Positions 3,436 to 52,259 of a stretch of 64,000 nucleotides of DNA are shown here, piece after piece. Made by a program: the position numbers and the translations under genes. Location of the stretch: the NCBI GenBank assembly GCA_945859975.1, contig CAMAPH010000002.1:64001-128000 (forward strand), read 5' to 3'. The stretch comes from Chthonomonas calidirosea. GTDB taxonomy: Bacteria > Armatimonadota > Fimbriimonadia > Fimbriimonadales > Fimbriimonadaceae. The notes beneath the pieces were generated by a model. That model worked only from the letters and a program-made list of their open reading frames with translations. It was not told where the DNA came from and made no database searches. The stretch's first letter is position 1; the number at the start of each line of letters is the position of its first letter.

Positions 3436-3518
3436 AGGAATCGGGAGCGCACGGAGGCGAACATGCATACTACCGGGATTTCGCCCGGTAGCGCAACGGT
3501 TAGGACCCGATTTTTGGT

Positions 3519-3788
3519 TTAGCGCAGTCGCTGCTCAACGGTTTCGGATGGCAAAACCACCGACCGGCTGACCAAGTTATCTACCGCGATCGACTGCTGA
3601 TGAACGAGGCTGCGAAGTTCTGCGATTTCGTGCCGTAGGGCAAGCATTTCCTGGCTAGATTGGCGATTTTGTTCTCCGCCATGAATGAGTTCGGCCATTC
3701 TCTGCTGGTGCTTCGTAAGAATCGCGACCACCGGAATCAGCAGTGCGAGAATCGGGATCATGATGGCGACATTTTCGACAGGAAACAT
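3519..3788 (-). CDS. small membrane-anchored coiled-coil hypothetical protein
   Basis: 89 aa with an N-terminal hydrophobic helix followed by a heptad coiled coil; TATAAT and GGAG upstream. Confidence 0.7.
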   Translation of the reverse strand: MFPVENVAIMIPILALLIPVVAILTKHQQRMAELIHGGEQNRQSSQEMLALRHEIAELRSLVHQQSIAVDNLVSRSVVLPSETVEQRLR

Positions 3789-39468: not shown

Positions 39469-40245
39469 TCAGTTCTTGATCGTGTTCTCAGACAGCTTCC
39501 AGGTGATGTAGCCTTTGTCGCCGTCCGGCTTCGTGTACACCGCGTGGAAGTACGAGAAGTTCTTGTCAAGGTTCTCGGCGTAAACCGTTCCCGCAATCGG
39601 GTTCGTCTTTCCGCGCTCATAGAAGCCGACAAACAGAGGCGAATCCACCGGGAACGAACCCGTGAGGGCGTTGCCGCCGCTCTGGATGGCTCCAACCGGA
39701 CCGACTACCGTGCGCTGAGAATCGGTTTGACTCACCCGTCGCCAAGCCGCGTCGAGGTTTGGCGTTGCTTTGTACGCCGACATCAGGTTGACCCAGGCAA
39801 AGTTGTTCGCGTATCCGATCGGGAAGTCCAGCCAGTTGAAGGCCGAGTTGGAACCGGCGAAGGCGAAGACCTGGAACGAGTACTCCATCTTCTGGTAGCC
39901 ACCGAAGACGTAGTTGCCGGTCGTGGCGTCCGTGACCGACCAGTAAACGTCTGGCCCGGAGAACACGCGGTCAAAGAACTGCCCCTGCTCGAGGTTATCT
40001 ACGATCGTCACTCCGTTGACGCGAACGCGAATCCGCTCATATTCCGTGAAGTTCGCGAAGCGAACCTTTGGCGTCGGATCGAGGATCGGCGCTGGGCCAG
40101 TTCCACCTGCCGTTGTTCCTGAGCCTCCGCTCGAACTGGAGGTCGATCCGCCAGAACTTGACGATCCTCCGCCAGAGCCGCCGCAAGCCAAGATGACAAG
40201 CGCGGCAACCGTAAGGGTTCCGATAGCAACGGGTGAAGTGCGCAT
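39469..40245 (-). CDS. hypothetical lipoprotein (DUF4397-like beta domains)
   Basis: ILAC lipobox, Gly/Ser linker, KVRFAN motif. Confidence 0.65.
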   Translation of the reverse strand: MRTSPVAIGTLTVAALVILACGGSGGGSSSSGGSTSSSSGGSGTTAGGTGPAPILDPTPKVRFANFTEYERIRVRVNGVTIVDNLEQGQFFDRVFSGPDVYWSVTDATTGNYVFGGYQKMEYSFQVFAFAGSNSAFNWLDFPIGYANNFAWVNLMSAYKATPNLDAAWRRVSQTDSQRTVVGPVGAIQSGGNALTGSFPVDSPLFVGFYERGKTNPIAGTVYAENLDKNFSYFHAVYTKPDGDKGYITWKLSENTIKN

Positions 40246-40348
40246 TTTTCCTCTCTGGCGTCCCCAAGCAAGCCGGGGACGCTTTTGCAAGAGTTTAGGT
40301 CACCCGCAAAATGTACGAGGTCACACGATTCCGTGAACTCAAATCACC

Positions 40349-42211
40349 TTATTTTGGCAATGGCAAACTAAGAGCACTCAGGAAGCTACGGAGCTTTTGA
40401 ATTCGGTTTGGCGTGTTCAGATTGATGTCGAAAGGTCGTCCTCGGGCGTCAACGATGACGCCAACCGTGCCGCCTTCCAACTTGACCTGAATGGCCTTGC
40501 CCTTTCCTTCCCCAACGTCAAAGCCTTTTGCCGGAGTAATCGTGACGTTTTTAAACTCGTCTCGACCGACCGGAATCACCTTGACTTCGCCGAACGGCAC
40601 CGAGACGTTGATGCCGTCGCCGGAGATCGTAACGCAAGGTTCGCCGTCCTTGCCCGTGCCGACCGGTGCGATGCAATGTCCGCACTTGACGATACAGTCG
40701 TACTCAAATACTTGCTTCGCGGCCGCGTAAAGGTGCTCGGAAAGCACGCCGAGGTGCGGCATCATGAAGATGCTGTCGACGGTGAGCATCGTGACGCCTT
40801 CCGGCAGGTAGGCATCCATCATCATCAGCGCCGATTGAGCTCGGTTTGGTGCGTGAGAAAGCACGCCGCCGGAGCCGATGACCATGTCGAGCGCCATCAT
40901 GTTGACCAAACTTTGCCCCGCCGCGCCTTGGTTGAAGAGACGGTCGATGTTCGATTCGGTCTGAACGCCGACGAGGTCTCGGGCAAGGGACTTGTGGTGC
41001 AAGAACGCAAGCCGCAGCGCTTCGCGCGAAACCGCATGCTCGATAAGCAAGTCCTCGTAAGTCTGAGGAATCGTCGTCGGACGAATCATCTTGTTGCGAA
41101 GTCGGTTTCGAACCTCCGCTGGCGAAATTTCAAACGGTAGCCATCGGGCAATGTTCTCGACTCCGGTCTCCTTGAGGACGTTACAAATCGAGTAGCTCAT
41201 GCCGAGGTTGGCCGAAACCGTTCGGTTGTAGATGCGCTCGCCGGAACCAGAGAGGAAGACCGAGAAAACGTCGGTGGTCGCGCCGCCGATGTCCACGCCA
41301 AGAACGTTGATCTTTTCGTTTTCAGCGTATTCCTTAAGCAGCTTGCCCACCGCGTTTGGCGTGGCCATAACCTCTTCGCTGGTCCATTCGAGGAGCTTCG
41401 AATAGCCCGGCGCCTGTTGCATCACGTGCTCCAAGAACATCTCGTGAATCTCTTCTCGCGCGGGGCCGAGGTTTTCCTTCTCTAGGGTCGGTCGAAGGTT
41501 GTCAACCACTTGAAGGCTGATGCCCTCGCCGAGAACCTTGCCGACGTCTGCGCTGGCTTGCTTGTTACCCGCGTAAATGATCGGAAGCTTCATGTCGCCG
41601 AATCGTGGCTTCGGGTCGGCGCGGCGAATGACTTCCGCCATTTCGATAAGGTGGCTGGTGGTGCCGCCATCGGTTCCGCCCGACATGAGAATGATGTCGG
41701 GGCGAAGCTGTCGAAGTCGTTCGACCTTTTGGTAGTCCTTTCGACCGTCATCAACGGCTAGCGTGTCCATCAGGATCGCGCCGGCGCCAAGGGCAGCGCG
41801 CTCGGCGGATTCGGCCGACATCGACTTGACCACGCCCGCGACCATCATCTGCAAGCCGCCGCCCGCGCTCGAAGTCGAAACGTACAGGTCGGAGCTTTCG
41901 AGCGGGCCGTTCACGCCACTGCTATCTCGCGCGCCTTCTTTAAGCTGTCGCCAAACTTTCCCGTCCTTAATGAGCGTTCGGCGGCCAGCGGTGTAGCCAG
42001 CCGGAACCGTGGTCTCGGTGATCTCCTCAAGCTCGGTGATCGAGTTGAGCACGCCGAGGGTCACGTCTTCGAACGGTCGTTCAACCGTCGTCGGTGCCTC
42101 ACCACGGGCAACGAGGCGATAATCGCCGGCCTCGTTCTGCTCAATGAGGATCGCCTTGGTCGTGGTGGAGCCGCAGTCGGTAGCTACGATACGCTTGATC
42201 GCGTCGGACAT
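40349..42211 (-). CDS. glutamate mutase L (GlmL/MutL)-like actin-fold ATPase
   Basis: TDCGSTTTKA, SSAGGGL, SGGTDGG, VDIGGATTDVFS, IVDARGRP. Confidence 0.85.
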   Translation of the reverse strand: MSDAIKRIVATDCGSTTTKAILIEQNEAGDYRLVARGEAPTTVERPFEDVTLGVLNSITELEEITETTVPAGYTAGRRTLIKDGKVWRQLKEGARDSSGVNGPLESSDLYVSTSSAGGGLQMMVAGVVKSMSAESAERAALGAGAILMDTLAVDDGRKDYQKVERLRQLRPDIILMSGGTDGGTTSHLIEMAEVIRRADPKPRFGDMKLPIIYAGNKQASADVGKVLGEGISLQVVDNLRPTLEKENLGPAREEIHEMFLEHVMQQAPGYSKLLEWTSEEVMATPNAVGKLLKEYAENEKINVLGVDIGGATTDVFSVFLSGSGERIYNRTVSANLGMSYSICNVLKETGVENIARWLPFEISPAEVRNRLRNKMIRPTTIPQTYEDLLIEHAVSREALRLAFLHHKSLARDLVGVQTESNIDRLFNQGAAGQSLVNMMALDMVIGSGGVLSHAPNRAQSALMMMDAYLPEGVTMLTVDSIFMMPHLGVLSEHLYAAAKQVFEYDCIVKCGHCIAPVGTGKDGEPCVTISGDGINVSVPFGEVKVIPVGRDEFKNVTITPAKGFDVGEGKGKAIQVKLEGGTVGVIVDARGRPFDINLNTPNRIQKLRSFLSALSLPLPK

Positions 42212-42377
42212 GGACTTATTATGAACATGGATTGGCTTCAGCGAAGTTTGAAGCTAGCGGAGACCGTCGTCTTGAAGTACGGCGATTCCGGTGCGTACTG
42301 CAAGGACTTTGTTTAAGTTTGCTTGCACGACAAATTTTCTGATTACGCAGGGTCGGTTTCGCCGTCTTGATGATGTG

Positions 42378-43400
42378 ATGAAAATTGCGGTATTGGCGGG
42401 TGTTCTTTTGGGGATCAGCGGGGATTGCCTGGCCAGTGGTCCAGTGCTACCTATCCCGGCGAGCAACATTTTGTTCAGCCACCGGATTAATGCGCAGCAA
42501 CCTGATCTGATCGTGGACAAGTTCGAAGCCAACAACGAAAACGTCCGAGGGGTTCTACGAAGCCTCTTTAAAAAGATGGGAGTTGCGGGCTACACGATTG
42601 ATCCCACAGTTCAGGGGAACGTGACGCTATCACTATCACGAATTTCGTTAAATACCGCTTTAGAATCATTAGTGCGTCAGGTTGATGCGACTTTTAGGGT
42701 CGAGGATGGGATTTACCAAGTACTGAGGAAGGAACCTTCGCCAAGTCCCGTGTCCACGACTCTAAACAAAACAGGGATACGATGGGTTAGCTACGAAGAC
42801 CCCGAACTCAGAACTCTGGTCCAAAAAGCACCAGTCGGAGACGAGGTTGGAGAGAAACTGATCACGATCGGATCGGGTTCCGATGAAGACATTCGTGACT
42901 TCCTTTCTCGAATCTTTTCCGAAGCATACGTGTCGTTCGTACTCAGCCCGAAAATTGAAGGTAAGGCGTATTGCACATTTAACTCGATGAAGCTGAAGGA
43001 TGTTCTAGCTGTCCTAGGCGAAGTTCACGGGTTTCACGCGGAGTTGCGAGCGGGTTGCTACGTTCTGCAGCCAACCCTTCAGGTGGCGGTGAATCTCGCT
43101 CCCTCCAAAAGCAGCCGCATTCTGGTTCTTGACGGCGGCACGGTGGAGCTAATGGCGTCCCCCAGGGCGAGCACGGCAGGAAAATTACCGGCAAAGCGAC
43201 TGCGGTCCGTCCCGGTCGCGGATGAGATCACCGCGCTGTTTCGACAAATGAACGCGAAGTACCGCATCTCTCCGAACTTGCCAAAGATTTCCGGGAACCT
43301 CCCCAGCGAATCTAAAGCGTCAAGGTTGTATCGACTCAAGAATCTTGCCAACGTGAGCGTGAAGCTTGAAAATGGCGTCTACGTAGTTCGACCAAAGTGA
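42378..43400 (+). CDS. secreted protein with tandem STN/secretin-N-like domains
   Basis: VRGVLRSLF..GYTIDPTVQGNVTL repeated degenerately; no C-terminal barrel. Confidence 0.7.
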   Translation: MKIAVLAGVLLGISGDCLASGPVLPIPASNILFSHRINAQQPDLIVDKFEANNENVRGVLRSLFKKMGVAGYTIDPTVQGNVTLSLSRISLNTALESLVRQVDATFRVEDGIYQVLRKEPSPSPVSTTLNKTGIRWVSYEDPELRTLVQKAPVGDEVGEKLITIGSGSDEDIRDFLSRIFSEAYVSFVLSPKIEGKAYCTFNSMKLKDVLAVLGEVHGFHAELRAGCYVLQPTLQVAVNLAPSKSSRILVLDGGTVELMASPRASTAGKLPAKRLRSVPVADEITALFRQMNAKYRISPNLPKISGNLPSESKASRLYRLKNLANVSVKLENGVYVVRPK

Positions 43401-43549
43401 CGCTTGGCTAGGGCCCGAACCTTGGAAGAAGCTCAATTTTCAACTTAGTGTTAAGAGAGCCGAATCCTGCGGAGGAACGCGCAAAATCTGACGCACGAAA
43501 TCGACAGATTCGTGTTGTCACCATAAGTGACCAGCGATAGAATGACGGC

Positions 43550-44461
43550 ATGCGAGCGGTCTGTGTTGCTCTGTTTGTTTTTGGTGTTTTGTCGAACGGT
43601 TTTGGAGATATAGCCCCGATCTCCGGTCAAGCCCCGGTGCTGGTTACTTACAAAACTCAAGGGGCAGAGGTTCGCGAGGTCCTTCGCGAACTGTTTCGGC
43701 AGGCCAAGGTCAGCGGATATACGATCGATCCCGATGTGCAGGGCAAGGTCCAGTTCTCGGCTGCGAAAGTGCAGATTGATGTTGCGCTTGCATCCGTTCT
43801 AACTCAAGTGGGCGCGACGTTTTCCGCTGAGAACAACGAATACCGAATCTTCTCGAAGCAGCAAGCCGCAATCCAGACGACGGAAGCCCCTGGTTTTGAA
43901 GCCAAACGTGCGAGCTTCAGCTTCAGTGGCGAAGATTTAGAAGCGGTTGTTGCTCACATTTTTAGCGAGTTCGATCAGAGCTTTGTGATGAGCTCAAAGA
44001 TCCAAGGCAAAGTAACACTGATCTTCAACTACGTCACCCTTCCGGTCGCTCTGGATCGCCTTGGCCGCGCTTGCGGATTTACGTATGAGTTGAAGGACAC
44101 CGTCTACACCTTGTTGCCTTCCCAAACGAGCGCACCGCTTGGAATGGAAAGCGCTTTGCCTGGGTTCTCCGAGCGACTGGCGACCACGACTTTAGCCGAC
44201 CAGAAGGGCATTCAAAAGGAAGTCCCGGCCAGTTCGGGACAGTTTGTCGCCCTTACCTTCACTGATCGCCGCGCTTCCGATCTCTTTGCCGAGACCTTTG
44301 CCCAAATGCGACTGCGGGTAAAAATCATGCCCGGACTTACGCAGAAACTGAGCGGCTACTTTGCCGCCGGAAGTTTTGAGTCGCGACTCTACGAACTCAA
44401 GACCCTCGCGAACGCCAAGGTCACCCTCGAAAAAGGCGTTCACGTCGTGCGGCCACGCTGA
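43550..44461 (+). CDS. secreted protein with tandem STN-like domains (paralog of the upstream gene)
   Basis: VREVLRELF..GYTIDPDVQGKV; shared C-terminus SRLY.LK.LAN..V.LE.GV.VVRP. Confidence 0.72.
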   Translation: MRAVCVALFVFGVLSNGFGDIAPISGQAPVLVTYKTQGAEVREVLRELFRQAKVSGYTIDPDVQGKVQFSAAKVQIDVALASVLTQVGATFSAENNEYRIFSKQQAAIQTTEAPGFEAKRASFSFSGEDLEAVVAHIFSEFDQSFVMSSKIQGKVTLIFNYVTLPVALDRLGRACGFTYELKDTVYTLLPSQTSAPLGMESALPGFSERLATTTLADQKGIQKEVPASSGQFVALTFTDRRASDLFAETFAQMRLRVKIMPGLTQKLSGYFAAGSFESRLYELKTLANAKVTLEKGVHVVRPR

Positions 44462-44462
44462 C

Positions 44463-44795
44463 TCAGGTCGTCAGCACTGAATAGGTAGCGAACTCGCTTT
44501 GCATCGGCGGTGCTTCCCCACAGGCTTTCGCCGTCGCGAGGTCGGCAAAAGCGCGCCGATGCCCTTCGATGAACTCAGGAGAAGCGGTCCACGCCTTGAA
44601 GCTGTCCTCATCCTGCCACTGACTGACCACCAGGTAGGGCTCCTCTGGCTTCGCGGGACGTAGCACCTGCATGCTCACGAAGCCCGAAAGGCGGTCAATG
44701 GCCTGCGCACGAGTTGAGAACAGCTCCTCAAATCGGGGCCGATAATCTGCGCGAACGACGATGCGATTTACCGCGACGAATCCGATATTTTGCAT
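44463..44795 (-). CDS. antibiotic biosynthesis monooxygenase (IsdG/HmoA-like) family protein
   Basis: FVAVNRI, FEELF..R, GF, W..EDSFKAWTASPEF..GH. Confidence 0.85.
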   Translation of the reverse strand: MQNIGFVAVNRIVVRADYRPRFEELFSTRAQAIDRLSGFVSMQVLRPAKPEEPYLVVSQWQDEDSFKAWTASPEFIEGHRRAFADLATAKACGEAPPMQSEFATYSVLTT

Positions 44796-44932
44796 AGACT
44801 TACTCAAAAGTTTGATGAGCCAAACTTTTTTCATTCTACACAAATCCGTCCAGTTTCGTGAAATCAAGGCGAACACTGAACAGATTCCGTTAAGTTCGCT
44901 ATAATGGACCCGTCCAGAAACAGGAGACCCTA

Positions 44933-46081
44933 TTGGCAGGAGTAGCGTTCAAAAGCGTAACAAAGGTGTACGGTAAGGACGTCAAGGCGGTCAGCGACCT
45001 CAACCTCGACATCCAAGATCAAGAGTTCATGGTCCTCGTCGGGCCTTCAGGCTGCGGAAAAACCACCGCCCTGAGAATGATCGCCGGCTTGGAAGAAGCG
45101 ACCGGTGGAGACATCATGATCGGCGACGTTCGCGTCAACGACGTTCCGCCAAAGGATCGAGACATAGCGATGGTTTTCCAAAACTACGCGCTCTATCCGC
45201 ACATGAACGTGTACGACAACATCGCGTTCGGTCTTCGGCTTCGAGAACTCAAGAGCTTCTTCTGGCAAATCACCCATTTGGCCGAAGCCAAGACGATCAA
45301 GGAAGACATCGACAAGCGGGTCAAAGAAGTTGCCCGTATGCTGGACATCGAGAAGTACCTCCATCGAAAGCCGAAGGAACTCTCAGGCGGTCAACGACAG
45401 CGTGTCGCTCTTGCGCGAGCCATCGTCCGAAAGCCGAAAGTCTTCTTGATGGACGAGCCGCTATCGAACCTGGACGCAAAGCTCCGCGTTCAAACTCGAG
45501 CCGAGCTCATTCGACTTCACCGCCAGCTCGGAATCACGACCGTATATGTCACCCACGACCAGGTCGAGGCCATGACGATGGGCCAGCGAATGGCCATCAT
45601 GCGCGACGGCATCCTCCAGCAGTGCGATCAGCCTGAAAAGGTCTATCAGTACCCGGCAAACAAGTTCGTTGCGGGCTTTATCGGCTCTCCTCCGATGAAC
45701 TTCATCGATGCTGAGATTCGCATGGAGAACGGTGTCGCGATTGTTGACGCCGGGGAGTTCAAGCTTCCGGTGCCAGATGGCAATCCTGCAGCTCACATGA
45801 GCGGCAAAAAGATCACCCTCGGCATTCGCGCTGAAGACATTCACGACGCTGCCATTCCAAGCAACGTGGTTGCGACCGATGCGAATAGCGTCCAGGCAAC
45901 CGTTGACGTAATGGAACCACTCGGCCACGAGTACGTTGCTTATCTGAAGATCGGCAAGATCAACCTAGTTGCTGCCATCAGCAACGAGAGTAAGGTCCGC
46001 GTCACCGAAGTCGCCAAGTTCGTGGTCAACCTTGACCGCGTACACCTCTTCGATGCCGAGACCGAACAGGCAATCCGCTAA
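44933..46081 (+). CDS. MalK/MsmX-type sugar ABC transporter ATP-binding protein
   Basis: GPSGCGKT, LSGGQRQ, MDEPLSNLD, C-terminal OB domains; no permease genes adjacent. Confidence 0.95.
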   Translation: MAGVAFKSVTKVYGKDVKAVSDLNLDIQDQEFMVLVGPSGCGKTTALRMIAGLEEATGGDIMIGDVRVNDVPPKDRDIAMVFQNYALYPHMNVYDNIAFGLRLRELKSFFWQITHLAEAKTIKEDIDKRVKEVARMLDIEKYLHRKPKELSGGQRQRVALARAIVRKPKVFLMDEPLSNLDAKLRVQTRAELIRLHRQLGITTVYVTHDQVEAMTMGQRMAIMRDGILQQCDQPEKVYQYPANKFVAGFIGSPPMNFIDAEIRMENGVAIVDAGEFKLPVPDGNPAAHMSGKKITLGIRAEDIHDAAIPSNVVATDANSVQATVDVMEPLGHEYVAYLKIGKINLVAAISNESKVRVTEVAKFVVNLDRVHLFDAETEQAIR

Positions 46082-46095
46082 GAAACCTGAATCCT

Positions 46096-46134
46096 AAAAG
46101 CGCGAGGTGAACCTAGGTTCCCTCGCGCTTTTTT
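46096..46134. terminator. bidirectional intrinsic terminator
   Basis: AAAAGCGCGAGG...CCTCGCGCTTTTTT. Confidence 0.88.
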
Positions 46135-46147
46135 GCGTCTTCTGTTT

Positions 46148-46343
46148 CCCCTAAGGGCGACGACGGGACTGACCGCGGGAAGAGTCTTGATGTTTAAGGT
46201 TTGAGGATTGAAGTCACGAACTTTGAGTTTTGAGGCCATAGGCCGCTTGATCAGGTTCAATGATTCTTGTCAAGAATCAGCCAGGATTCGATGTTGATCG
46301 AAGGTGCTAAGTCAGTCGTATTCCGTCAATCGCCCTTAGAGGC
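46148..46343 (-). ncRNA. candidate ~200-nt structured ncRNA with a heptanucleotide repeat tract
   Basis: Long terminal helix CCTCTAAGGGCGATTGACGG / CCGTCGTCGCCCTTAGGGG extended by GACTGACT/GGTCAGTC, whose mismatches are G-U on the minus strand; internal hairpins; TYAANNN repeats; TAGAAT -10 box at 46355-46350. Confidence 0.7.
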
Positions 46344-46363
46344 GGCTTCATTCTATCGGTTTT

Positions 46364-46813
46364 TCACTCGGAAAACTCAATGGAAACGGTGGCGTTGTGC
46401 TCGTCCAGACGATCCTGAAGTTCGTCGATCTCCGCTTCAAGCCGCGATACTTCTTCTTCGACTTCGCGGGCGGAAAGGGTCGCGATGTACTCCTGCGGTT
46501 CCTGCATTCCGTACGGTTGCATGAACTTTCCCGACGTGGTCGGAATCCTCCGCAAGAAGCTGATGTGACTCTTCAGTTCCCCGATGCGATAGATCGTCTC
46601 CTGAATCGGAGCATTGGCGAGGCTAATTGCCGCTTTCAATTTCACGAGCGCCTCAGTTGCATTTCGGAGTTCAGCGAGACTTGCCGCCACATCAAACTCT
46701 TCCCTGCCGCCAACGAGGCGCGAATTGTGAGCGGTCACGATGCCCTGAAGCTTTTGAATCTTCGCCACTTGGCGATTCTTGAGCTTCAGGGCTTTCGCGA
46801 GCGAGATTGCCAT
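46364..46813 (-). CDS. DIP1984/DUF6847-like coiled-coil protein
   Basis: 149 aa: MAISLAKALKLKNR..., LVKLKAAISLAN, EIDELQDRLDEHNATVSI; ATG overlaps the upstream TAA and sits 6 nt after TACCGT. Confidence 0.8.
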   Translation of the reverse strand: MAISLAKALKLKNRQVAKIQKLQGIVTAHNSRLVGGREEFDVAASLAELRNATEALVKLKAAISLANAPIQETIYRIGELKSHISFLRRIPTTSGKFMQPYGMQEPQEYIATLSAREVEEEVSRLEAEIDELQDRLDEHNATVSIEFSE

Positions 46814-49344
46814 TACTGGACGGTAACCCAGACCGATGTGCTCGCCGAACCGAACTGAACGGTTCCGCGGGTGAACTTCCAGCAGGACTGATAGAGGCCA
46901 ACGGTGTTCGGCGCCGTGAGTCGAGCCTGAACCGTGATCGTTTGGCCAGGTGCAACGTTGCTTCCGGGCGGCATTCCGAGGCGGCTCTTGCCGAATGTGG
47001 TCGACCCCACGGGCATTGAGGTCAGCGCAAGGCGCTGCACATCCGCCGAGGTCCAGTTCTGCGTACCGGCGTTTCGGAACGTGAACGCGACCGTGAAGAC
47101 TTGCCCCGGTGCGACCGTGTTCGGAACCTGCTGGGAAACAAACGCGGCATCCCATTCGGTGTTGACCGACATTGGGACCGAAATCGTCGTGGTCGTTCCG
47201 TTACCGTTGGTAACCGTTAGCGTTGCGTAGAGTTTTGCGCTAGGCGTGATAGCGGCATGATTCAGCACGACTTCATTGCTGGTCGGAGCAATTTCGGTGT
47301 TCGCGACAACATCGCCTGCGCCAGCCGTTCGACCAATCTTGATCTGGTACTTCTCGATTCCCGTCTCGGTGTCGTATGCCCAGAGCTTGAATCGAGTCGC
47401 CGAGTAGGCGCCACCCGTCGGGACGCCTTCCCAGTTGGAAAAAGCAAATCGATCCACGATCGGCGCGGTGTCATCACCGGTGTAAGTTCCGCACCAGAAG
47501 TCCGTCGCCGGTGCATCGCTGCCCGAAATGACTTCGACGCGCCGGACCTTAGTCTTCCCAAAGGCCACCGCGGTTACGGTGTACATGCCCGGTGCCAGCT
47601 GGTCGTATCGGTACGTACCGTTAGCAAGCGTCGAGGTTTGGTAGGTGATCGTGCCACCGTCCTTCTTAGCGCGAACCGTAGCGTTGCCTTGTGCAGTGCC
47701 TTCGTTGTAGACGATTCCTTCGATTGCCCCGGCGGTAGCTCCTCGGGAGTCCGCATCCTGCAACAGATAGTAAGCATCAAGCGAGCCGTAACCCTGGTGG
47801 GTCTCCCAAGAGCCTTTCGGTGCGCCGTACACGCTCAGTGCCGACCGCTGCAAGGCTCGATAGGCCCGAAGGTTCTGCATGCCCTGAGCTCGATCCATAT
47901 CGTTCTTGCCGTAGTACAAGCTTGCCGCGCCCGCGACGATCGGGCTCGCCATCGATGTTCCAATCAAGTAGCCGTAGCCAAGGTCATATCCTGGCGCCCC
48001 GACGTCCATGATCGGGTTATGGGTGGTCATCGTGGTGGAGTAGATGTACGCCAGCATCGCGATCGGGTCTTCGATGTTGCTGTAATCGAGGATGATGTTT
48101 CCTCCTGGTGCAGCGAGGTCGATGTACGAACCGGTTCCCGCGTAGTAGTCCGAGGCATGGATGTAGCCGTAGCCGTTCGCGGTGACCGCGAAAGCGCCAC
48201 TGCAAGCCGCAGGATAAATCGGCCCTAAGTCACCGCCACCGGCGCCGTCCTCGTTACAAGCCACCACGACGAGGACTCCCTTCTGCCAGGCGTAGGTCAC
48301 CGCGTCCTGGAAGAGCTGCGAGAAGTTTTCCGTGCCAAGGCTAAGGTTGATGATGTCCACGCCATGATCGGTCGCGTAGAAAATCGCGCCCGCCGCATCG
48401 GCGTCTGAGCCGTTTCCGGTGTCATCGAAAACGCGGAGATTGATTCCCTTGCTTGGATAGCCGAGCCCGACGATTCCCTTTCCGTTCCAGTTTCCGTTGT
48501 TCCCAGAAGCAAGGGCAAGTCCGGTGACGTGAGTGCCGTGCCCCATCGCATCTTCGGTGGATCCTTCTTGCAGAACTTCGCCAAAGCTGAACTGGGCGTC
48601 CAGGCTCAAATCGAACTGCCCGCCTTCTTCGATGCTGCTGTCAAATCCCCCGGCGTTGATGAAGTCCGGGTGTTGTCGCTCAACTCCGGTGTCGATGACC
48701 GCGATCATCGGCACGTTCTGTGGTTTGTCGGCGCTCGTAAACCATCGATTGGGCCAATCGTTCCAAGCATCGAAAGCGCTGGTCTCGTCGAGATACCAGA
48801 GCCGGCGATACGTGACGCCCTCTCCGAGCGGAATCATTGGCTCTCCGATTTCAATAACGTTCCAGTCCCCGTCATTGGGCTCTGGCAAGAGCGGATAAAT
48901 TTTGTTGAGCGGCTGTGCCGCCACGACGTTTGGTTTGCCCTTCAGGCTTGCCGCGACCGCCTTGGGATCCTCGCCCTTTCCGAGTTGCCATACCGTCCAG
49001 CCGGACCGCTGAATCCGGTTTCGAAAATTCTCGGAGCGCAATCCGGTAGGCACAAAACGAGCGCGCGTCGCTTCGGTTTTCGTTAGCTCTGCCGCAACCT
49101 TGGTCGGAAACTTGACCAAAACGTAGCCAGGAACGATCTCGTTCTTGCGCTTCGCGGGAATGTTTCGCTTCAAGATGCTTCGCAAAACCAATCCCAGTGG
49201 TTTCGGTGCAAAAATAGAAACGGCCGGATTACCGATGACTCGGCTTCTCCGTCCTAGCGATTCGCTCACGGGACCAACGGTCTGGGCGGGAGCAACGGCA
49301 ACCAGAAATAGGCTTGCAGCCAAACTCAAAACTCTAAAATTCAT
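46813..49344 (-). CDS. secreted S8 serine peptidase with C-terminal Ig-like domains
   Basis: Triad VIDTG / HGTHV / GTSMASP; terminal DAAFVSQ...RNAGTQNW domain. Confidence 0.92.
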   Translation of the reverse strand: MNFRVLSLAASLFLVAVAPAQTVGPVSESLGRRSRVIGNPAVSIFAPKPLGLVLRSILKRNIPAKRKNEIVPGYVLVKFPTKVAAELTKTEATRARFVPTGLRSENFRNRIQRSGWTVWQLGKGEDPKAVAASLKGKPNVVAAQPLNKIYPLLPEPNDGDWNVIEIGEPMIPLGEGVTYRRLWYLDETSAFDAWNDWPNRWFTSADKPQNVPMIAVIDTGVERQHPDFINAGGFDSSIEEGGQFDLSLDAQFSFGEVLQEGSTEDAMGHGTHVTGLALASGNNGNWNGKGIVGLGYPSKGINLRVFDDTGNGSDADAAGAIFYATDHGVDIINLSLGTENFSQLFQDAVTYAWQKGVLVVVACNEDGAGGGDLGPIYPAACSGAFAVTANGYGYIHASDYYAGTGSYIDLAAPGGNIILDYSNIEDPIAMLAYIYSTTMTTHNPIMDVGAPGYDLGYGYLIGTSMASPIVAGAASLYYGKNDMDRAQGMQNLRAYRALQRSALSVYGAPKGSWETHQGYGSLDAYYLLQDADSRGATAGAIEGIVYNEGTAQGNATVRAKKDGGTITYQTSTLANGTYRYDQLAPGMYTVTAVAFGKTKVRRVEVISGSDAPATDFWCGTYTGDDTAPIVDRFAFSNWEGVPTGGAYSATRFKLWAYDTETGIEKYQIKIGRTAGAGDVVANTEIAPTSNEVVLNHAAITPSAKLYATLTVTNGNGTTTTISVPMSVNTEWDAAFVSQQVPNTVAPGQVFTVAFTFRNAGTQNWTSADVQRLALTSMPVGSTTFGKSRLGMPPGSNVAPGQTITVQARLTAPNTVGLYQSCWKFTRGTVQFGSASTSVWVTVQ

Positions 49345-49424
49345 GGGCAGAACCAATCCTCAGAGAGAGTTTAACGGAAAAAAGTCAAAAGACCAACCAT
49401 TCCTCCCCCAGAACGTTAGCCTTT

Positions 49425-49453
49425 TTAGACTTGGAATAGGAAGGCGTTGTTCC
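49425..49453 (-). promoter_or_regulatory. ECF (sigmaE-type) promoter upstream of the S8 peptidase
   Basis: GGAACAA-N16-GTCTAA. Confidence 0.6.
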
Positions 49454-49488
49454 GTGGCAAGTAACCTGTTTGCAGGTCGGATTTGAGC

Positions 49489-50154
49489 ATGTTTTTCTGC
49501 CTGCGAATCGATGTCGATTACGTTCCGTGGGATACGCCAGATGCGGAGGAGTTTGGGCATGGCGAGCCGGCGATGTTACTGCGAATCTTCGAGTTTGCAA
49601 AGGAGCGAGGCCTGAAGTTCCAGTTCTTCGTTTCCAACCGAGTGATCCGAGCTTTTCCCACTACCGCCGATGCCATTTTGAACGAGGGACATGATCTCGA
49701 TTGGCTCTGCAAGCATCCCGATGATTCCGCCTCCCGCTACGAAGAGGCCCTTGTTCTTCTCCGGGCCATTGGACATTCGCCACGAGGCGTCGCGGTAAAG
49801 CAGGTTTGGCCAGAATCGGCAGCGACCCAGCACTTCGAAGGCATCGAATTCCTCAGCTCCGAAGGGGCCTTTTGCCCAACCGCATGGCGGCACTTTCCGA
49901 TTGAGCTGAAGCAAGCGCGTTCGGCGCAGCAAGCCGGGATGAGTGTTCGGACTTGGACCGATACGGCCAAGAGACTCGTGCGCGACGCTGCGAGCCGTAA
50001 TCGCAACGTGACGATCGCGGTCCGGCCTCAAGCACTTGCTCGTTGGGACCCTCGTCTCACCCACCTCGCCGAAATCGTGGACCTCGCCACCGCCGTGATG
50101 CTGCCCGTGATGACTCTTCGTGAGGCGTTTAGCGTAGCCCAGGCAGATTCATAA
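49489..50154 (+). CDS. polysaccharide deacetylase-like fold protein
   Basis: LRIDVD start motif and K.QFFVS; canonical His residues not evident. Confidence 0.55.
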   Translation: MFFCLRIDVDYVPWDTPDAEEFGHGEPAMLLRIFEFAKERGLKFQFFVSNRVIRAFPTTADAILNEGHDLDWLCKHPDDSASRYEEALVLLRAIGHSPRGVAVKQVWPESAATQHFEGIEFLSSEGAFCPTAWRHFPIELKQARSAQQAGMSVRTWTDTAKRLVRDAASRNRNVTIAVRPQALARWDPRLTHLAEIVDLATAVMLPVMTLREAFSVAQADS

Positions 50155-50593
50155 CCACCGTCCACTCATCGGGCGTTACCGGCATGATGCTGAGGCGCTG
50201 CCCGCGCCGTGTTACGAACATTTCTTCAAGGCCCGTGGTCTGACGCAGCTCCGCGAGGGGCACGACGCGCGAAAATTTCTCAACGAATTCAACGTCTCGA
50301 ACCAGCCATCGCGGGTTGTCTGGCAGGCTCTTCGGGTCGTGGTATTCCGAAGTTGGATCGAACTGCGTGGGATCGGGATAGGCCTCGCTCGAGATTCTTA
50401 GAACTCCGACAATTCCGCTGGGCGCCGAATTCGAATGATAGAAAAACGCAAGGTCTCCGATGGCCATCGAGTCTCGAATAAAGTTGCGAACCGTGTAGTT
50501 TCGGCAACCTTCCCACATTTCAGGCTTGCCCGCCTTCGCGAGATGGTCAATTGAGTAAACGTCCGGCTCGGACTTCATCAGCCAGTAGTTCAT
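50129..50593 (-). CDS. EVE domain protein
   Basis: MNYWLMKSEP, WEGCRNY, FYHS, QRLSIMPV. Confidence 0.93.
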   Translation of the reverse strand: MNYWLMKSEPDVYSIDHLAKAGKPEMWEGCRNYTVRNFIRDSMAIGDLAFFYHSNSAPSGIVGVLRISSEAYPDPTQFDPTSEYHDPKSLPDNPRWLVRDVEFVEKFSRVVPLAELRQTTGLEEMFVTRRGQRLSIMPVTPDEWTVVMNLPGLR

Positions 50594-50670
50594 GAAACAT
50601 ATTGTGCCGACCCGAGCAAAACTCGGATCGGCATATATCACACCAGCAGGCTGGTTTATGGCAGGCTGGT

Positions 50671-51867
50671 TTACGGGAGGCTGACGTGAACGGCGATGTC
50701 GCCGGTCACCGCGCTGATGTCCAACACGCCGGTGCCTTCGCCGATCCGGCCGGTGATCCGCTGCGCGGTTCGGTGCTCTTCTGACAGCTCACCGCTGAAT
50801 GCGACTTCGCCGTTGAGCGTCGAGATCGAAACCCGAGAATCCGAGTTCGCGGGAATCTCGATGTTCGCATCACCGGACACCGTCCGAATATTGACCGTAC
50901 CGCTGACCGCATTGATGAGCGACACTGCGATGTCCCCGGAAACGGTTTCAAGCGAGATCACCTTGCTTTCCAATCGCTTGGCACTCACATCGCCGCTTGC
51001 GGTTCGAGCACTGACGTTTCCGCGAATGTTCTCCAATGAGACGTCGCCTGACTTGTGCTCGATATTGAGGATCGTCGCCGTTACGTTTGAAACGTGAACA
51101 TTTCCAGAATCGGAACTGACCTCAATTGCGCCATTCAGCCCCGAGAGGTGAATGTCGCCGGATCGACTATTGATGCGTACGCCAGCGCCAGTCTCGTGGA
51201 TGTGGATGTCGCCCGACTCGGCCCGCACTTCGATTGCGGCAAAGCCGTTAAGATCGATGTGCAAGTCGACGTTGAGCCCGGTCATATCCGGCTGCTTGAT
51301 CACGACCGCATGGTCGCTCTCCTCGATCGTGAGGGTGTATTGGTCAGCTTTTGCCTTCGCGTCATCAAGTGACGCGCCCCGAATTGAGGCTTCGGCTCGA
51401 ACGTTTCCGATCTCCTTTCCGCCATGGATATGGATGTCGCCAATCGGATTCTCGATCCGAAGCACCTTGCCGGTTGGAACCATCAACGGCAGGTCGATGC
51501 TCTTGTGCTCACTCGTTCCCAGCCAGCCAAGATTGACCGATCCCTTCGAAATGTCATCGATCGTCTCGCGAACGATATCTCGGCCACGCTTGGCGCCTTC
51601 GTTCATCTTTCGGCCAAGATCGGCCCAGTCAATGGACTCGGTCTTTTCACGCGCCATCCTCTCAAGGTCTTGGAAGAACCCAGAGATCTGATCTACGGGT
51701 GGCTTCGGGGCATCGGGCGGAGGAGGAGGAGTGCCCGCATCAGGAGCCACACGTTCGGTTTCGGTGCGTTCTCCCTGCATCAACGCCTCGATCAAATCGG
51801 CCGCTTCATCTGCGGTTAAAGCACCATCGGCTACGAGTTGGTTGATTTTTCGAATTTGTTCTTTCAT
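50671..51867 (-). CDS. DUF4097 beta-helix repeat protein with an N-terminal SHOCT-like segment
   Basis: LVADGALTADEAADLIEAL; repeated SGDI/V strands. Confidence 0.85.
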   Translation of the reverse strand: MKEQIRKINQLVADGALTADEAADLIEALMQGERTETERVAPDAGTPPPPPDAPKPPVDQISGFFQDLERMAREKTESIDWADLGRKMNEGAKRGRDIVRETIDDISKGSVNLGWLGTSEHKSIDLPLMVPTGKVLRIENPIGDIHIHGGKEIGNVRAEASIRGASLDDAKAKADQYTLTIEESDHAVVIKQPDMTGLNVDLHIDLNGFAAIEVRAESGDIHIHETGAGVRINSRSGDIHLSGLNGAIEVSSDSGNVHVSNVTATILNIEHKSGDVSLENIRGNVSARTASGDVSAKRLESKVISLETVSGDIAVSLINAVSGTVNIRTVSGDANIEIPANSDSRVSISTLNGEVAFSGELSEEHRTAQRITGRIGEGTGVLDISAVTGDIAVHVSLP

Positions 51868-52259
51868 CGGAGTTCCTGTAATCTTCGCTTTGCCTCTTGA
51901 GCCGACAGTTCGCCGTTCTCAAGCTGCTCGATAATTCGTCGTTTTTCATCCACAATCGCTTCCCGGCGGTTCTCTTGCTGGGGCGGGTGTAGGTCAAGTG
52001 CGGCAAGCAAGGCATCGAGTCGCCCGCGCACGGTTGGGTAGCTGATGCCAAGCTCCTTCTCTACGTGGCTGAGCATTCCGCGGCACTTCAGGAATGCTTC
52101 CAAGAATTGAACGTGCTCGGGCTCAAGCTTCGCATACCTCGGGATCTCGAACTTGCCTCGAATCGTTATCCCGGACTCTTCGCTGGCGAGTTCGCTGATG
52201 TAAAGCTCTCCGCCGGAGACCGGGTCTCGTGGTGGGATGGGATGAAGACTTGACTTCAT
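51864..52259 (-). CDS. DUF2089 family HTH protein
   Basis: FLKCRG..VEKELGISYPTVRGRLD; SHOCT-like end. Confidence 0.88.
   Translation of the reverse strand: MKSSLHPIPPRDPVSGGELYISELASEESGITIRGKFEIPRYAKLEPEHVQFLEAFLKCRGMLSHVEKELGISYPTVRGRLDALLAALDLHPPQQENRREAIVDEKRRIIEQLENGELSAQEAKRRLQELR

Follow-up and report, generated by a model that had tools for sequence, protein, structure and literature searches.

We describe a structured RNA and the protein gene to which it is linked, both encoded on the minus strand of a 64,000-nt stretch of DNA assigned to Chthonomonas calidirosea (assembly GCA_945859975.1, contig CAMAPH010000002.1, positions 64,001 to 128,000; this whole stretch is called the window, and positions given without a locus number refer to it). 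The RNA starts 21 nt 3' of the stop codon of a gene for a 149-aa protein that resembles DIP1984. The pair, which we call type A, spans Armatimonadota, Planctomycetota, Verrucomicrobiota and huge phages. We are highly confident that this RNA is expressed, conserved and genetically tied to the DIP1984-fold gene. Whether the two also form a dedicated protein-RNA pair, a ribonucleoprotein (RNP) that acts in conflicts over tRNA and RNA damage, is in our view an evenly balanced question, and this is the reading developed below. The gene and the parts of the RNA are as follows (evidence in brackets):

46364-46813, minus strand: DIP1984-like gene, 149 aa plus stop codon (open reading frame (ORF) and sequence)
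46342-46148, minus strand: whole structured non-coding RNA, 195 nt, the 'type A' DIP1984-associated RNA (fold, model R2, RNA contigs)
46342-46323, minus strand: closing helix P1, 5' strand, CCUCUAAGGGCGAUUGACGG (sequence, fold, covariation over 50 sequences)
46317-46310, minus strand: inner helix, 5' strand, GACUGACU (sequence, fold)
46261-46302, minus strand: variable region with two hairpins (sequence, fold)
46234-46256, minus strand: position of motif M (alignments A4 and A5, column counts)
46181-46234, minus strand: G-poor tract of eight 7-nt units with phased CA (sequence, alignments)
46174-46167, minus strand: inner helix, 3' strand, GGUCAGUC (sequence, fold)
46166-46148, minus strand: closing helix P1, 3' strand, CCGUCGUCGCCCUUAGGGG (sequence, fold, covariation)

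The original prediction, made from the letters of the window, had placed a closed structure of about 27 bp at this position, and sequence and fold confirm it. The minimum free energy of the element was -68.3 kcal/mol versus -47.6 +/- 4.0 kcal/mol for 200 shuffled sequences (z -5.19), none of which folded as well. P1 (CCUCUAAGGGCGAUUGACGG/CCGUCGUCGCCCUUAGGGG) comprises 19 pairs with one bulged U and two U-G pairs, and the inner helix (GACUGACU/GGUCAGUC) has 8 pairs including one U-G; stacked on each other, they give about 27 bp, three of them U-G. The paired ends enclose three small hairpins and the single-stranded, G-poor tract. All three hairpins that had been predicted are present: UUCGAU-CAAC-AUCGAA at 46287-46302, UGAUUCUUG-A-CAAGAAUCA at 46261-46279, and GGCC-UAU-GGCC within motif M, with the loops CAAC, GAC and UAU, respectively. 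Motif M has the family consensus CUGAUG..GAUSCCGA and is degenerate in the window, where it reads ACCUGAUCAAGCGGCCUAUGGCC. A heptad-repeat tract had also been proposed. Eight units were indeed found (family consensus UCAA, CA, UCA, UCAA, CA, CAA, CAA, CUCA), but in the window they are degenerate (CA, CA, CG, CA, CA, UA, CA, CU, with spacings of 7, 7, 8, 7, 7, 7, 7), Tandem Repeats Finder called no repeat in 46000-46900, and it takes the cross-species alignment to make the 7-nt phase clear.

One genome per prokaryote species was scanned, which gave relatives of the protein at 56 loci, labelled Fimbriimonadaceae, Gemmataceae, Isosphaeraceae, Planctomycetaceae and Verrucomicrobiota, together with a few oddly labelled metagenome-assembled genomes (MAGs). 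The 330 bases 3' of each stop codon share a common anatomy almost everywhere, in the order long closing helix, variable hairpins, GAUSCCGA-type motif, eight 7-nt units with phased CA, and CCUC. Across the family the RNA is about 170-225 nt long, and in most loci 3-35 nt separate it from the stop codon, with a terminator hairpin behind it; the sequence of the closing helix is wholly different between clades. With R1, a sequence-only model of the RNA core (90 positions), we searched both strands of 64 sources (365,588 bases, E <= 1). Sixty matches were obtained, one per source, always on the strand of the gene and just downstream of the homolog, and the predicted two-part cassette of gene and RNA is thereby supported. 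Sources without a match were L050, whose contig breaks off 28 nt past the stop codon, L071 and L072, whose protein hits are doubtful, and the AT-rich phage L075, in which the element was seen by eye. In the window itself R1 matched 46175-46254 (42 bits), and R2, a full-length model that includes the closing helix and aligned 50 elements (alignment A5), matched 46152-46338 (79.5 bits).

Within the genus, 11 of 46 genomes gave a protein match, a count that includes the genome of the window, one pseudogene and one weak partial hit, and each of the ten genomes with a gene or pseudogene had an R1 hit directly behind it; at L015 the gene is a pseudogene and the RNA was kept. At E <= 0.001 R2 detected the RNA in 4 of the 46 genus genomes, all of them carriers, in a search with stricter filters that missed some carriers, and it found no full-length copy in the 35 same-genus genomes without a protein match. 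The 3.12-Mb genome holds one copy of the element, and tblastn against 72,556 plasmids gave no match to the protein. Comparison with Rfam 15, by which the original prediction had wanted novelty judged, returned nothing on the element at E <= 10 (window 45000-48000) and nothing at the gathering score in 20 related loci. At two loci (L030 2969-3090, L040 2975-3059) long near-perfect palindromes lie between the stop codon and the RNA and resemble a small insertion of a mobile or REP-like kind.

The original prediction had looked for support to the DNA downstream of homologs, and there the closing helix covaries and the 7-nt CA units are conserved. Standard pairs filled 89.9% of the P1 cells versus 67.6 +/- 1.4% after shuffling (a level reached in 0 of 500 shuffles), and 118 cells were compensatory versus 41.7 +/- 6.2 in the shuffles; A5 was fitted to P1, so these counts lean towards that helix. 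Changes occurred on both sides in all ten pairs, controls in which P1 was slid paired at 28-46%, and the clade-specific closing helices can readily be recognised in the raw sequences. Four CA units had an invariant A in 46 of 46 rows (<90% identity), the spacings between CA units over the family were 7, 7, 8-10, 7, 7, 7, 7, and the column counts for motif M were G42/A43/U38/C42/C35/G45/A41 of 44-46 rows. Folding energy alone cannot assign the strand, because the plus strand also folds well (-79 kcal/mol, z -3.96). At pair 4 of P1 we counted 16 G-U and at pair 10 16 U-G pairs, which are A-C mismatches on the opposite strand. Since these pairs and the constant orientation agree, we assign the RNA to the strand of the gene. 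Alignment of 37 whole elements by MAFFT followed by RNAalifold gave no consensus structure, as the helices were out of register, a problem that was overcome by clade-wise folds and model-guided alignment. A helix control with swapped partners was uninformative and was not used (true median 22 versus control 16 with a 95th percentile of 22; 21 of 52 true pairs above that percentile), because partners from the same clade share the helix and the DNA is GC-rich.

Evidence for a transcript, which the original prediction had anticipated, comes from lake or freshwater metatranscriptomes. Six runs contain a small share of an 851-nt stretch around the pair, and four of them, from four studies, were examined. 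Each gave one contig of 151-161 nt that was confined to 46151-46324, with 2 differences (46151-46303, 46164-46303, 46158-46309 and 46164-46324); in one run an adapter remnant abuts 46164. The coding region was without cover in three of the four runs and had a diverged contig over it in one, although uncovered parts of 46050-46900 are by themselves no proof of silence. Because the cover is confined to the RNA in four independent libraries, contaminating DNA is hard to invoke. This pattern fits a stable RNA that outlasts its mRNA.

Two further elements of the window bear on how such an RNA could arise:

46355-46350, minus strand: TAGAAT hexamer, 7 nt ahead of the first paired base (sequence)
46096-46132, no strand assigned: terminator-like hairpin, bidirectional (inverted repeat and sequence)

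The hairpin lies where a terminator had been predicted to follow the RNA, between the RNA and a convergent ABC ATPase gene. Its arms (46096-46107 and 46121-46132) form a perfect helix of 12 bp with a 13-nt loop, an A-run and a T-run; the terminator scan did not call it, probably due to a loop that exceeds the limit of the scan. The TAGAAT hexamer had been taken for a -10 box of the RNA and TACCGT-N6-ATG for that of the gene. Both hexamers are in place, but a promoter scan of 45900-47000 gave no sigma-70-like site, and TAGAAT is common only to the window and its 97%-identical relative. Upstream, the ATG of the gene shares bases with the TAA of an S8 protease gene (an 847-aa ORF on the minus strand) as TAATG. 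As gene and RNA are 3-35 nt apart in most loci and a terminator follows, co-transcription with subsequent processing or differential stability is the simplest reading, and an own promoter for the RNA is less likely. These features lend no support to the autonomous cassette with its own promoters that had been envisaged. In the window genome the cassette stands alone between the protease gene and the ABC ATPase gene; ARAGORN found no tRNA or tmRNA gene in 40000-52000 and there is no tRNA within 6 kb on either side. A 60-aa ORF (46078-46260, minus strand) overlaps the RNA and the terminator, shows no sign of conservation in other clades and is taken as spurious.

The protein partner belongs to the surroundings of a known family. 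It matched NF038048 (NCBIfam DIP1984) over residues 5-143 with 33.5 bits (E 4.2e-8), under the curated cutoff of 70, and PF20935 (DUF6847) with 19.3 bits (18.2 bits in the genome scan), under the gathering cutoff of 27; PF20935 is carried by several homologs at 43-49% identity. The AlphaFold model (AF2, built on 36 homologs; pLDDT 94.1) predicts a three-helix bundle with a small sheet. Its sole clear structural match was PDB entry 3KDQ, a functionally uncharacterised protein from Corynebacterium diphtheriae (VIA-align Z 13.0 over 142 of 149 residues at an rmsd of 2.4 A; the next entry has Z 8.6), for which Foldseek gave a TM score of 0.71. A search of the PDB by sequence with a profile of the type A protein returned coiled-coil noise only (E > 0.05). 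The best match to 3KDQ and the family scores below cutoff mark the protein, as modelled, as a divergent sister group of the DIP1984/DUF6847 family. In line with the oligomer that had been proposed, a homodimer was predicted with an ipSAE of 0.69 versus 0.00 for the best control, a mark that was attained for 20 of 30 proteins with a structure solved as a pair and for 1 of 23 with a single-chain structure. The predicted dimer pairs antiparallel along the long second helix, at least 98% of its contacts are the same between runs, and the partner pLDDT is at least 88. The two best-conserved patches, N-terminal KALKLKNR and C-terminal LQDxLDxxN, both lie outside the predicted interface. An automatic label 'YicC' on one homolog was not borne out by the Pfam scan; other public names of homologs are uninformative ('hypothetical'). 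To our knowledge this widespread family, with a structure solved since 2009, has no known function. We found no description of the pair in a full-text search of the open literature (supplements aside), which turned up DIP1984/DUF6847 merely as a hypothetical plasmid gene, and searches on RNA-repair operons and on phage tRNA-array RNAs (supplements aside) gave no account of it.

Canonical members of the family are followed by a different RNA. Among 151 Armatimonadota genomes, 15 had a protein match and 8 encode canonical members; four of these scored 184-199 bits on the NCBIfam model, three about 181 bits on the Pfam model, and one matches 3KDQ at E 1.3e-27. In all eight loci read (L136-L143) the gene is followed, in the stretch about 0-240 nt past its stop codon, by an RNA that we call type B. 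It has a D-loop-like AGYNGGUAR motif at its 5' end, a closing helix of GAGCAC with GUGCUGG, a hairpin with covarying stems (whose loop is a T-arm-like UUCRA in 5 of 8), a CA-phased tract and, at its 3' end, GAGGGYGGG..GGGG. Comparison of 9 further loci with Rfam (E <= 0.1) gave no match on this element. One type B locus has eight tRNAs upstream, and in five Armatimonadota genomes tested neither TROVE nor RtcB was adjacent to the type B gene. Because two protein subfamilies each carry their own RNA, the comparison of sequences argues for co-evolution of protein and RNA. PF20935 was also over cutoff in Deinococcus radiodurans, which served as a control genome and is the model organism for Ro60/Y RNA.

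Parts that resemble tRNA were found in relatives of the type A RNA as well; in other clades the variable region that corresponds to 46261-46302 has hairpins whose loops are like those of an anticodon arm or a T-arm. The anticodon-loop pattern YUNNNRN occurred as a hairpin with a 7-nt loop in 11 of 48 elements (RNAfold) versus 0-2 in 20 shuffles. Verrucomicrobia-type RNAs have two such hairpins each (loops, e.g., CUGUAAA, CUGCAAA, CUGAAAA), the loops CUGUUAA and CUGAAAA recur in Planctomycetaceae and Isosphaeraceae on different stems, and the phage copy L108 has a perfect T-arm-like hairpin. Opposite the RNA core of L035 (3069-3161) and L067 (3061-3153), on the minus strand, ARAGORN reported a tRNA-like fold with a 2-base anticodon, which is probably spurious.

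The genomic neighbourhood of part of the family points to tRNA and RNA repair. Ten of the 14 Verrucomicrobia-type loci are embedded in arrays of as many as 16 tRNA genes; tRNA-Phe directly follows the RNA in 7 of the 14, RtcB follows it in three, and one locus has a phage integrase upstream. At L062 the order is Ro60/TROVE, DIP1984-like gene, RNA. The protein is encoded in two huge uncultured phages (462 and 595 kb) and in 21 IMG/VR contigs, the longest of 340 kb. R1 matched the RNA in 11 of these 21 viral loci, and in most of the remaining, AT-rich loci a like element was recognised by reading. In seven of the 21, tRNAs lie no more than 3 kb away, and the gene of L113 is set among 18 tRNAs. 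In a Pfam scan of the neighbours in 14 non-redundant viral loci, L115 showed, in this order, an Rnl1-like ligase, cREC, a P-loop kinase that directly precedes the pair, the pair itself and another RNA ligase; upstream of the pair in L124 and its three near-copies are an RNA ligase and a phosphoesterase; and cREC, a phosphoesterase, a CCA-adding-like enzyme and a PP-loop enzyme were found at L114, L109, L122 and L117, respectively. Published surveys ascribe components such as those near the viral pairs to the repair of cleaved tRNAs by phages (PMC7824862), and in cyanobacteria tRNA operons are co-regulated with rtcB under translational stress (PMC8421152); the accessible parts of these two papers mention neither the protein nor the RNA. 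Other genes seen at single loci are ThiF and JAB genes upstream at L076, and, in the deltaproteobacterial MAG L061, a group II intron domain (965-1104) and a SAM-alpha riboswitch ahead of metK (1478-1553), both upstream of the DIP1984-like gene. In phages an ORF can stand between gene and RNA: a small Lys/Pro-rich one at L076 (about 3490-3580) and one for a papain-like peptidase at L114 (3449-4297).

Our working model is built on these observations. The transcription unit runs gene, RNA, terminator, and the RNA would be cut out of the mRNA or would outlive it. Dimers of the protein would bind the RNA by the KALKLKNR and LQDxLDxxN patches, with the phased CA units as the most likely site, and so form an RNP. 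We lean slightly towards such direct binding. To judge by the neighbourhood, the particle might work in the response to tRNA and RNA damage, either as a decoy or sponge for tRNA-directed ribonucleases or as an adaptor for repair or degradation enzymes, comparable to Y RNA-Ro60; this role is a fair guess that we hold with somewhat less than even confidence. The original interpretation as a whole is thus partly supported, and the setting in tRNA arrays and RNA-repair cassettes had not been foreseen. A bolder version, which we regard as rather unlikely, extends the model to the whole DIP1984/DUF6847 family: each subfamily would have a cognate RNA, and together they would be a new RNP class in the tRNA warfare of bacteria and large phages. 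CA(N) units and anticodon-loop-like hairpins would then dock or mimic tRNA anticodon loops, and the particle could sequester anticodon nucleases or pass cleaved tRNAs on to RtcB or RNA ligases. UCAAR units, for instance, might be complementary to a Gln-type anticodon loop or might imitate that of a Leu(CAA) tRNA.

Several observations weigh against a dedicated RNP in RNA damage. R1 also matches many tandem heptamer arrays, (CTCAAGG)n, (CCTCAAT)n, (CTCAAGT)n and (GCTCATA)n, which in same-genus genomes without the protein come immediately behind the stop codons of unrelated genes. They extend up to about 430 nt (loci L078-L107, in genomes G017, G052, G003, G016, G018, G009, G049 and others; e.g., L086 about 1394-1819, L079 about 1472-1608); the genome of the window has no such array at E <= 0.01. 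Because those genomes lack the protein, whatever reads the arrays there is not this protein, so a tract of CA heptads needs no such partner, and a general host factor may be the reader. Forty-two of the 56 genomic loci, the window included, have unrelated housekeeping neighbours and no tRNA or repair gene nearby, and the window RNA is without the tRNA-like hairpins of other clades. The window genome has RtcB elsewhere, and no TROVE was found in it (95.8% complete). The dimer prediction may partly echo the 3KDQ crystal as a memory, because that structure was solved with four chains. Finally, besides the lean of the P1 counts mentioned above, the RNA evidence consists of contigs, which do not give ends, strand or level.

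Some of these points favour another partner. The RNA could be bound by RtcB, an ATP-grasp RNA ligase, Ro60, PNPase, Rho, Hfq or a general RNA-binder, with the DIP1984-like protein merely co-expressed in the same pathway, a minority possibility in our estimate. In its favour are the tract-like heptamer arrays in genomes without the protein. Ro60 stands directly upstream at L062, several loci have RtcB or ligases beside the pair, and the motif GAUSCCGA loosely resembles the Ro60-contact motifs given in the accessible part of PMC4201824. However, Ro60/TROVE is adjacent in only 1 of the 56 genomic loci, TROVE is missing from the window genome as described and was not found in four of five other carriers tested, the DIP1984-like gene is the sole constant neighbour of the RNA, and each of the two protein subfamilies has its own RNA type.

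An element that acts in cis, as a stabiliser, a Rho-loading or termination signal or a site of autoregulation in the 3' UTR with no function in trans, is something we consider improbable. The short distance between stop codon and RNA with a terminator behind it would suit such an element, as would the C-rich, G-poor tract, the alike arrays right after the stops of other genes in relatives and the lack of promoter-like sites in the scan. This explanation is hard to reconcile with a helix of about 27 bp around a conserved loop that covaries across at least three phyla and phages, with contigs that cover the RNA and not the coding region in three of four runs, with the ORFs between gene and RNA in phages L114 and L076, and with tRNA arrays in which the RNA is placed like another RNA gene.

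The original prediction had also offered a type III-like toxin with an RNA antitoxin. In such a toxin-antitoxin or abortive infection system the RNA would neutralise a toxic protein and free it on infection or RNA damage. The patchy distribution (11 of 46 genus genomes, and phages) and the combination of a small protein with a repeat-bearing RNA recall these systems, yet we think this very improbable. In the type III architecture repeats of tens of nucleotides stand upstream of the toxin gene, with a terminator between them; here the units have 7 nt and the RNA lies downstream. No endoribonuclease fold was among the listed structure matches, PADLOC called no system (weak coiled-coil LmuB hits for the window protein, none for three others), no match was found in the plasmids, and the RNA outlived its gene at L015. 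A mobile repeat (MITE) or a chance hairpin, which the long terminal inverted repeats around about 150 nt might suggest, can practically be dismissed, as the element has one copy in the genome and is not dispersed, its position beside one gene family is fixed across phyla, and its helix covaries with G-U pairs.

Away from the pair, the window encodes two neighbouring ORFs of 369 and 303 aa on the plus strand (42291-43400 and 43550-44461), which have alike repeat-like bodies and near-identical C-terminal ends and appear to be paralogs of unknown function.

If the reading as a dedicated protein-RNA pair holds, a covarying, expressed RNA gives the DIP1984/DUF6847 family a testable function for the first time and adds an RNA class beyond Rfam 15. 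Its placement in phage tRNA arrays and RNA-repair cassettes, once by Ro60, points to a player that may have gone unrecognised in the contest of phages, bacteria and toxins over tRNA integrity. Two carriers are in culture, Paludisphaera soli JC670 and Singulisphaera sp. Ch08, and make binding and phenotype directly testable.

Among known systems, Ro60 (Rsr) with Y RNA or YrlA (rsr-yrlA-rtcBA) bears several likenesses: an RNA of about 100-200 nt whose 5' and 3' ends form a helix round a large loop is encoded beside the protein gene on the same strand, sometimes near RtcB and in phages, and type B as well as some phage copies carry T-arm-like or D-loop-like parts as Y RNAs do. Unlike Ro60, which is a HEAT-repeat ring, the protein is a 149-aa helical bundle. 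The window genome is without TROVE, so no Ro60 gene lies within about 4 kb on the same strand as for YrlA; by reading, the window RNA has neither the GNCGAAN0-1G motif, which in Y RNA and YrlA is located near the 5' end, nor T-arm/D-arm mimicry, and its eight phased CA units have no counterpart in Y RNA as far as the accessible part of PMC4201824 describes it. CsrA with CsrB/RsmZ and TRAP with its GAG repeats likewise use a short, regularly spaced, largely unpaired motif, and here too the partner is predicted to be oligomeric; our RNA differs by one CA per 7 nt, another protein fold, a closed loop and an RNA in cis with the gene, and binding is in our case a proposal. The type III systems ToxIN, CptIN and TenpIN resemble the pair in a small protein gene that adjoins a repeat RNA and in their patchy occurrence, and differ in repeat size, gene order, the nuclease fold that was not found here and the repair-gene context. 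Like GOLLD, ROOL and HEARO (compare PMC12286853), the type A RNA belongs to the orphan structured RNAs that occur in phages and near tRNA genes; at about 170-225 nt it is much smaller, has an obligate neighbouring protein gene and matches no Rfam 15 model. tmRNA-SmpB also joins a small dedicated protein to an end-paired RNA round an unstructured stretch, and relatives of our RNA have a T-arm-like hairpin, whereas ARAGORN called no tmRNA, an acceptor end is missing, the period is 7 nt and not 3 nt, and the protein is unrelated. Finally, cyanobacterial STRR are intergenic heptamer arrays, and the arrays in same-genus genomes look like them; the tract of the window, in contrast, is a fixed set of eight degenerate units within a conserved folded RNA, and no variable array.

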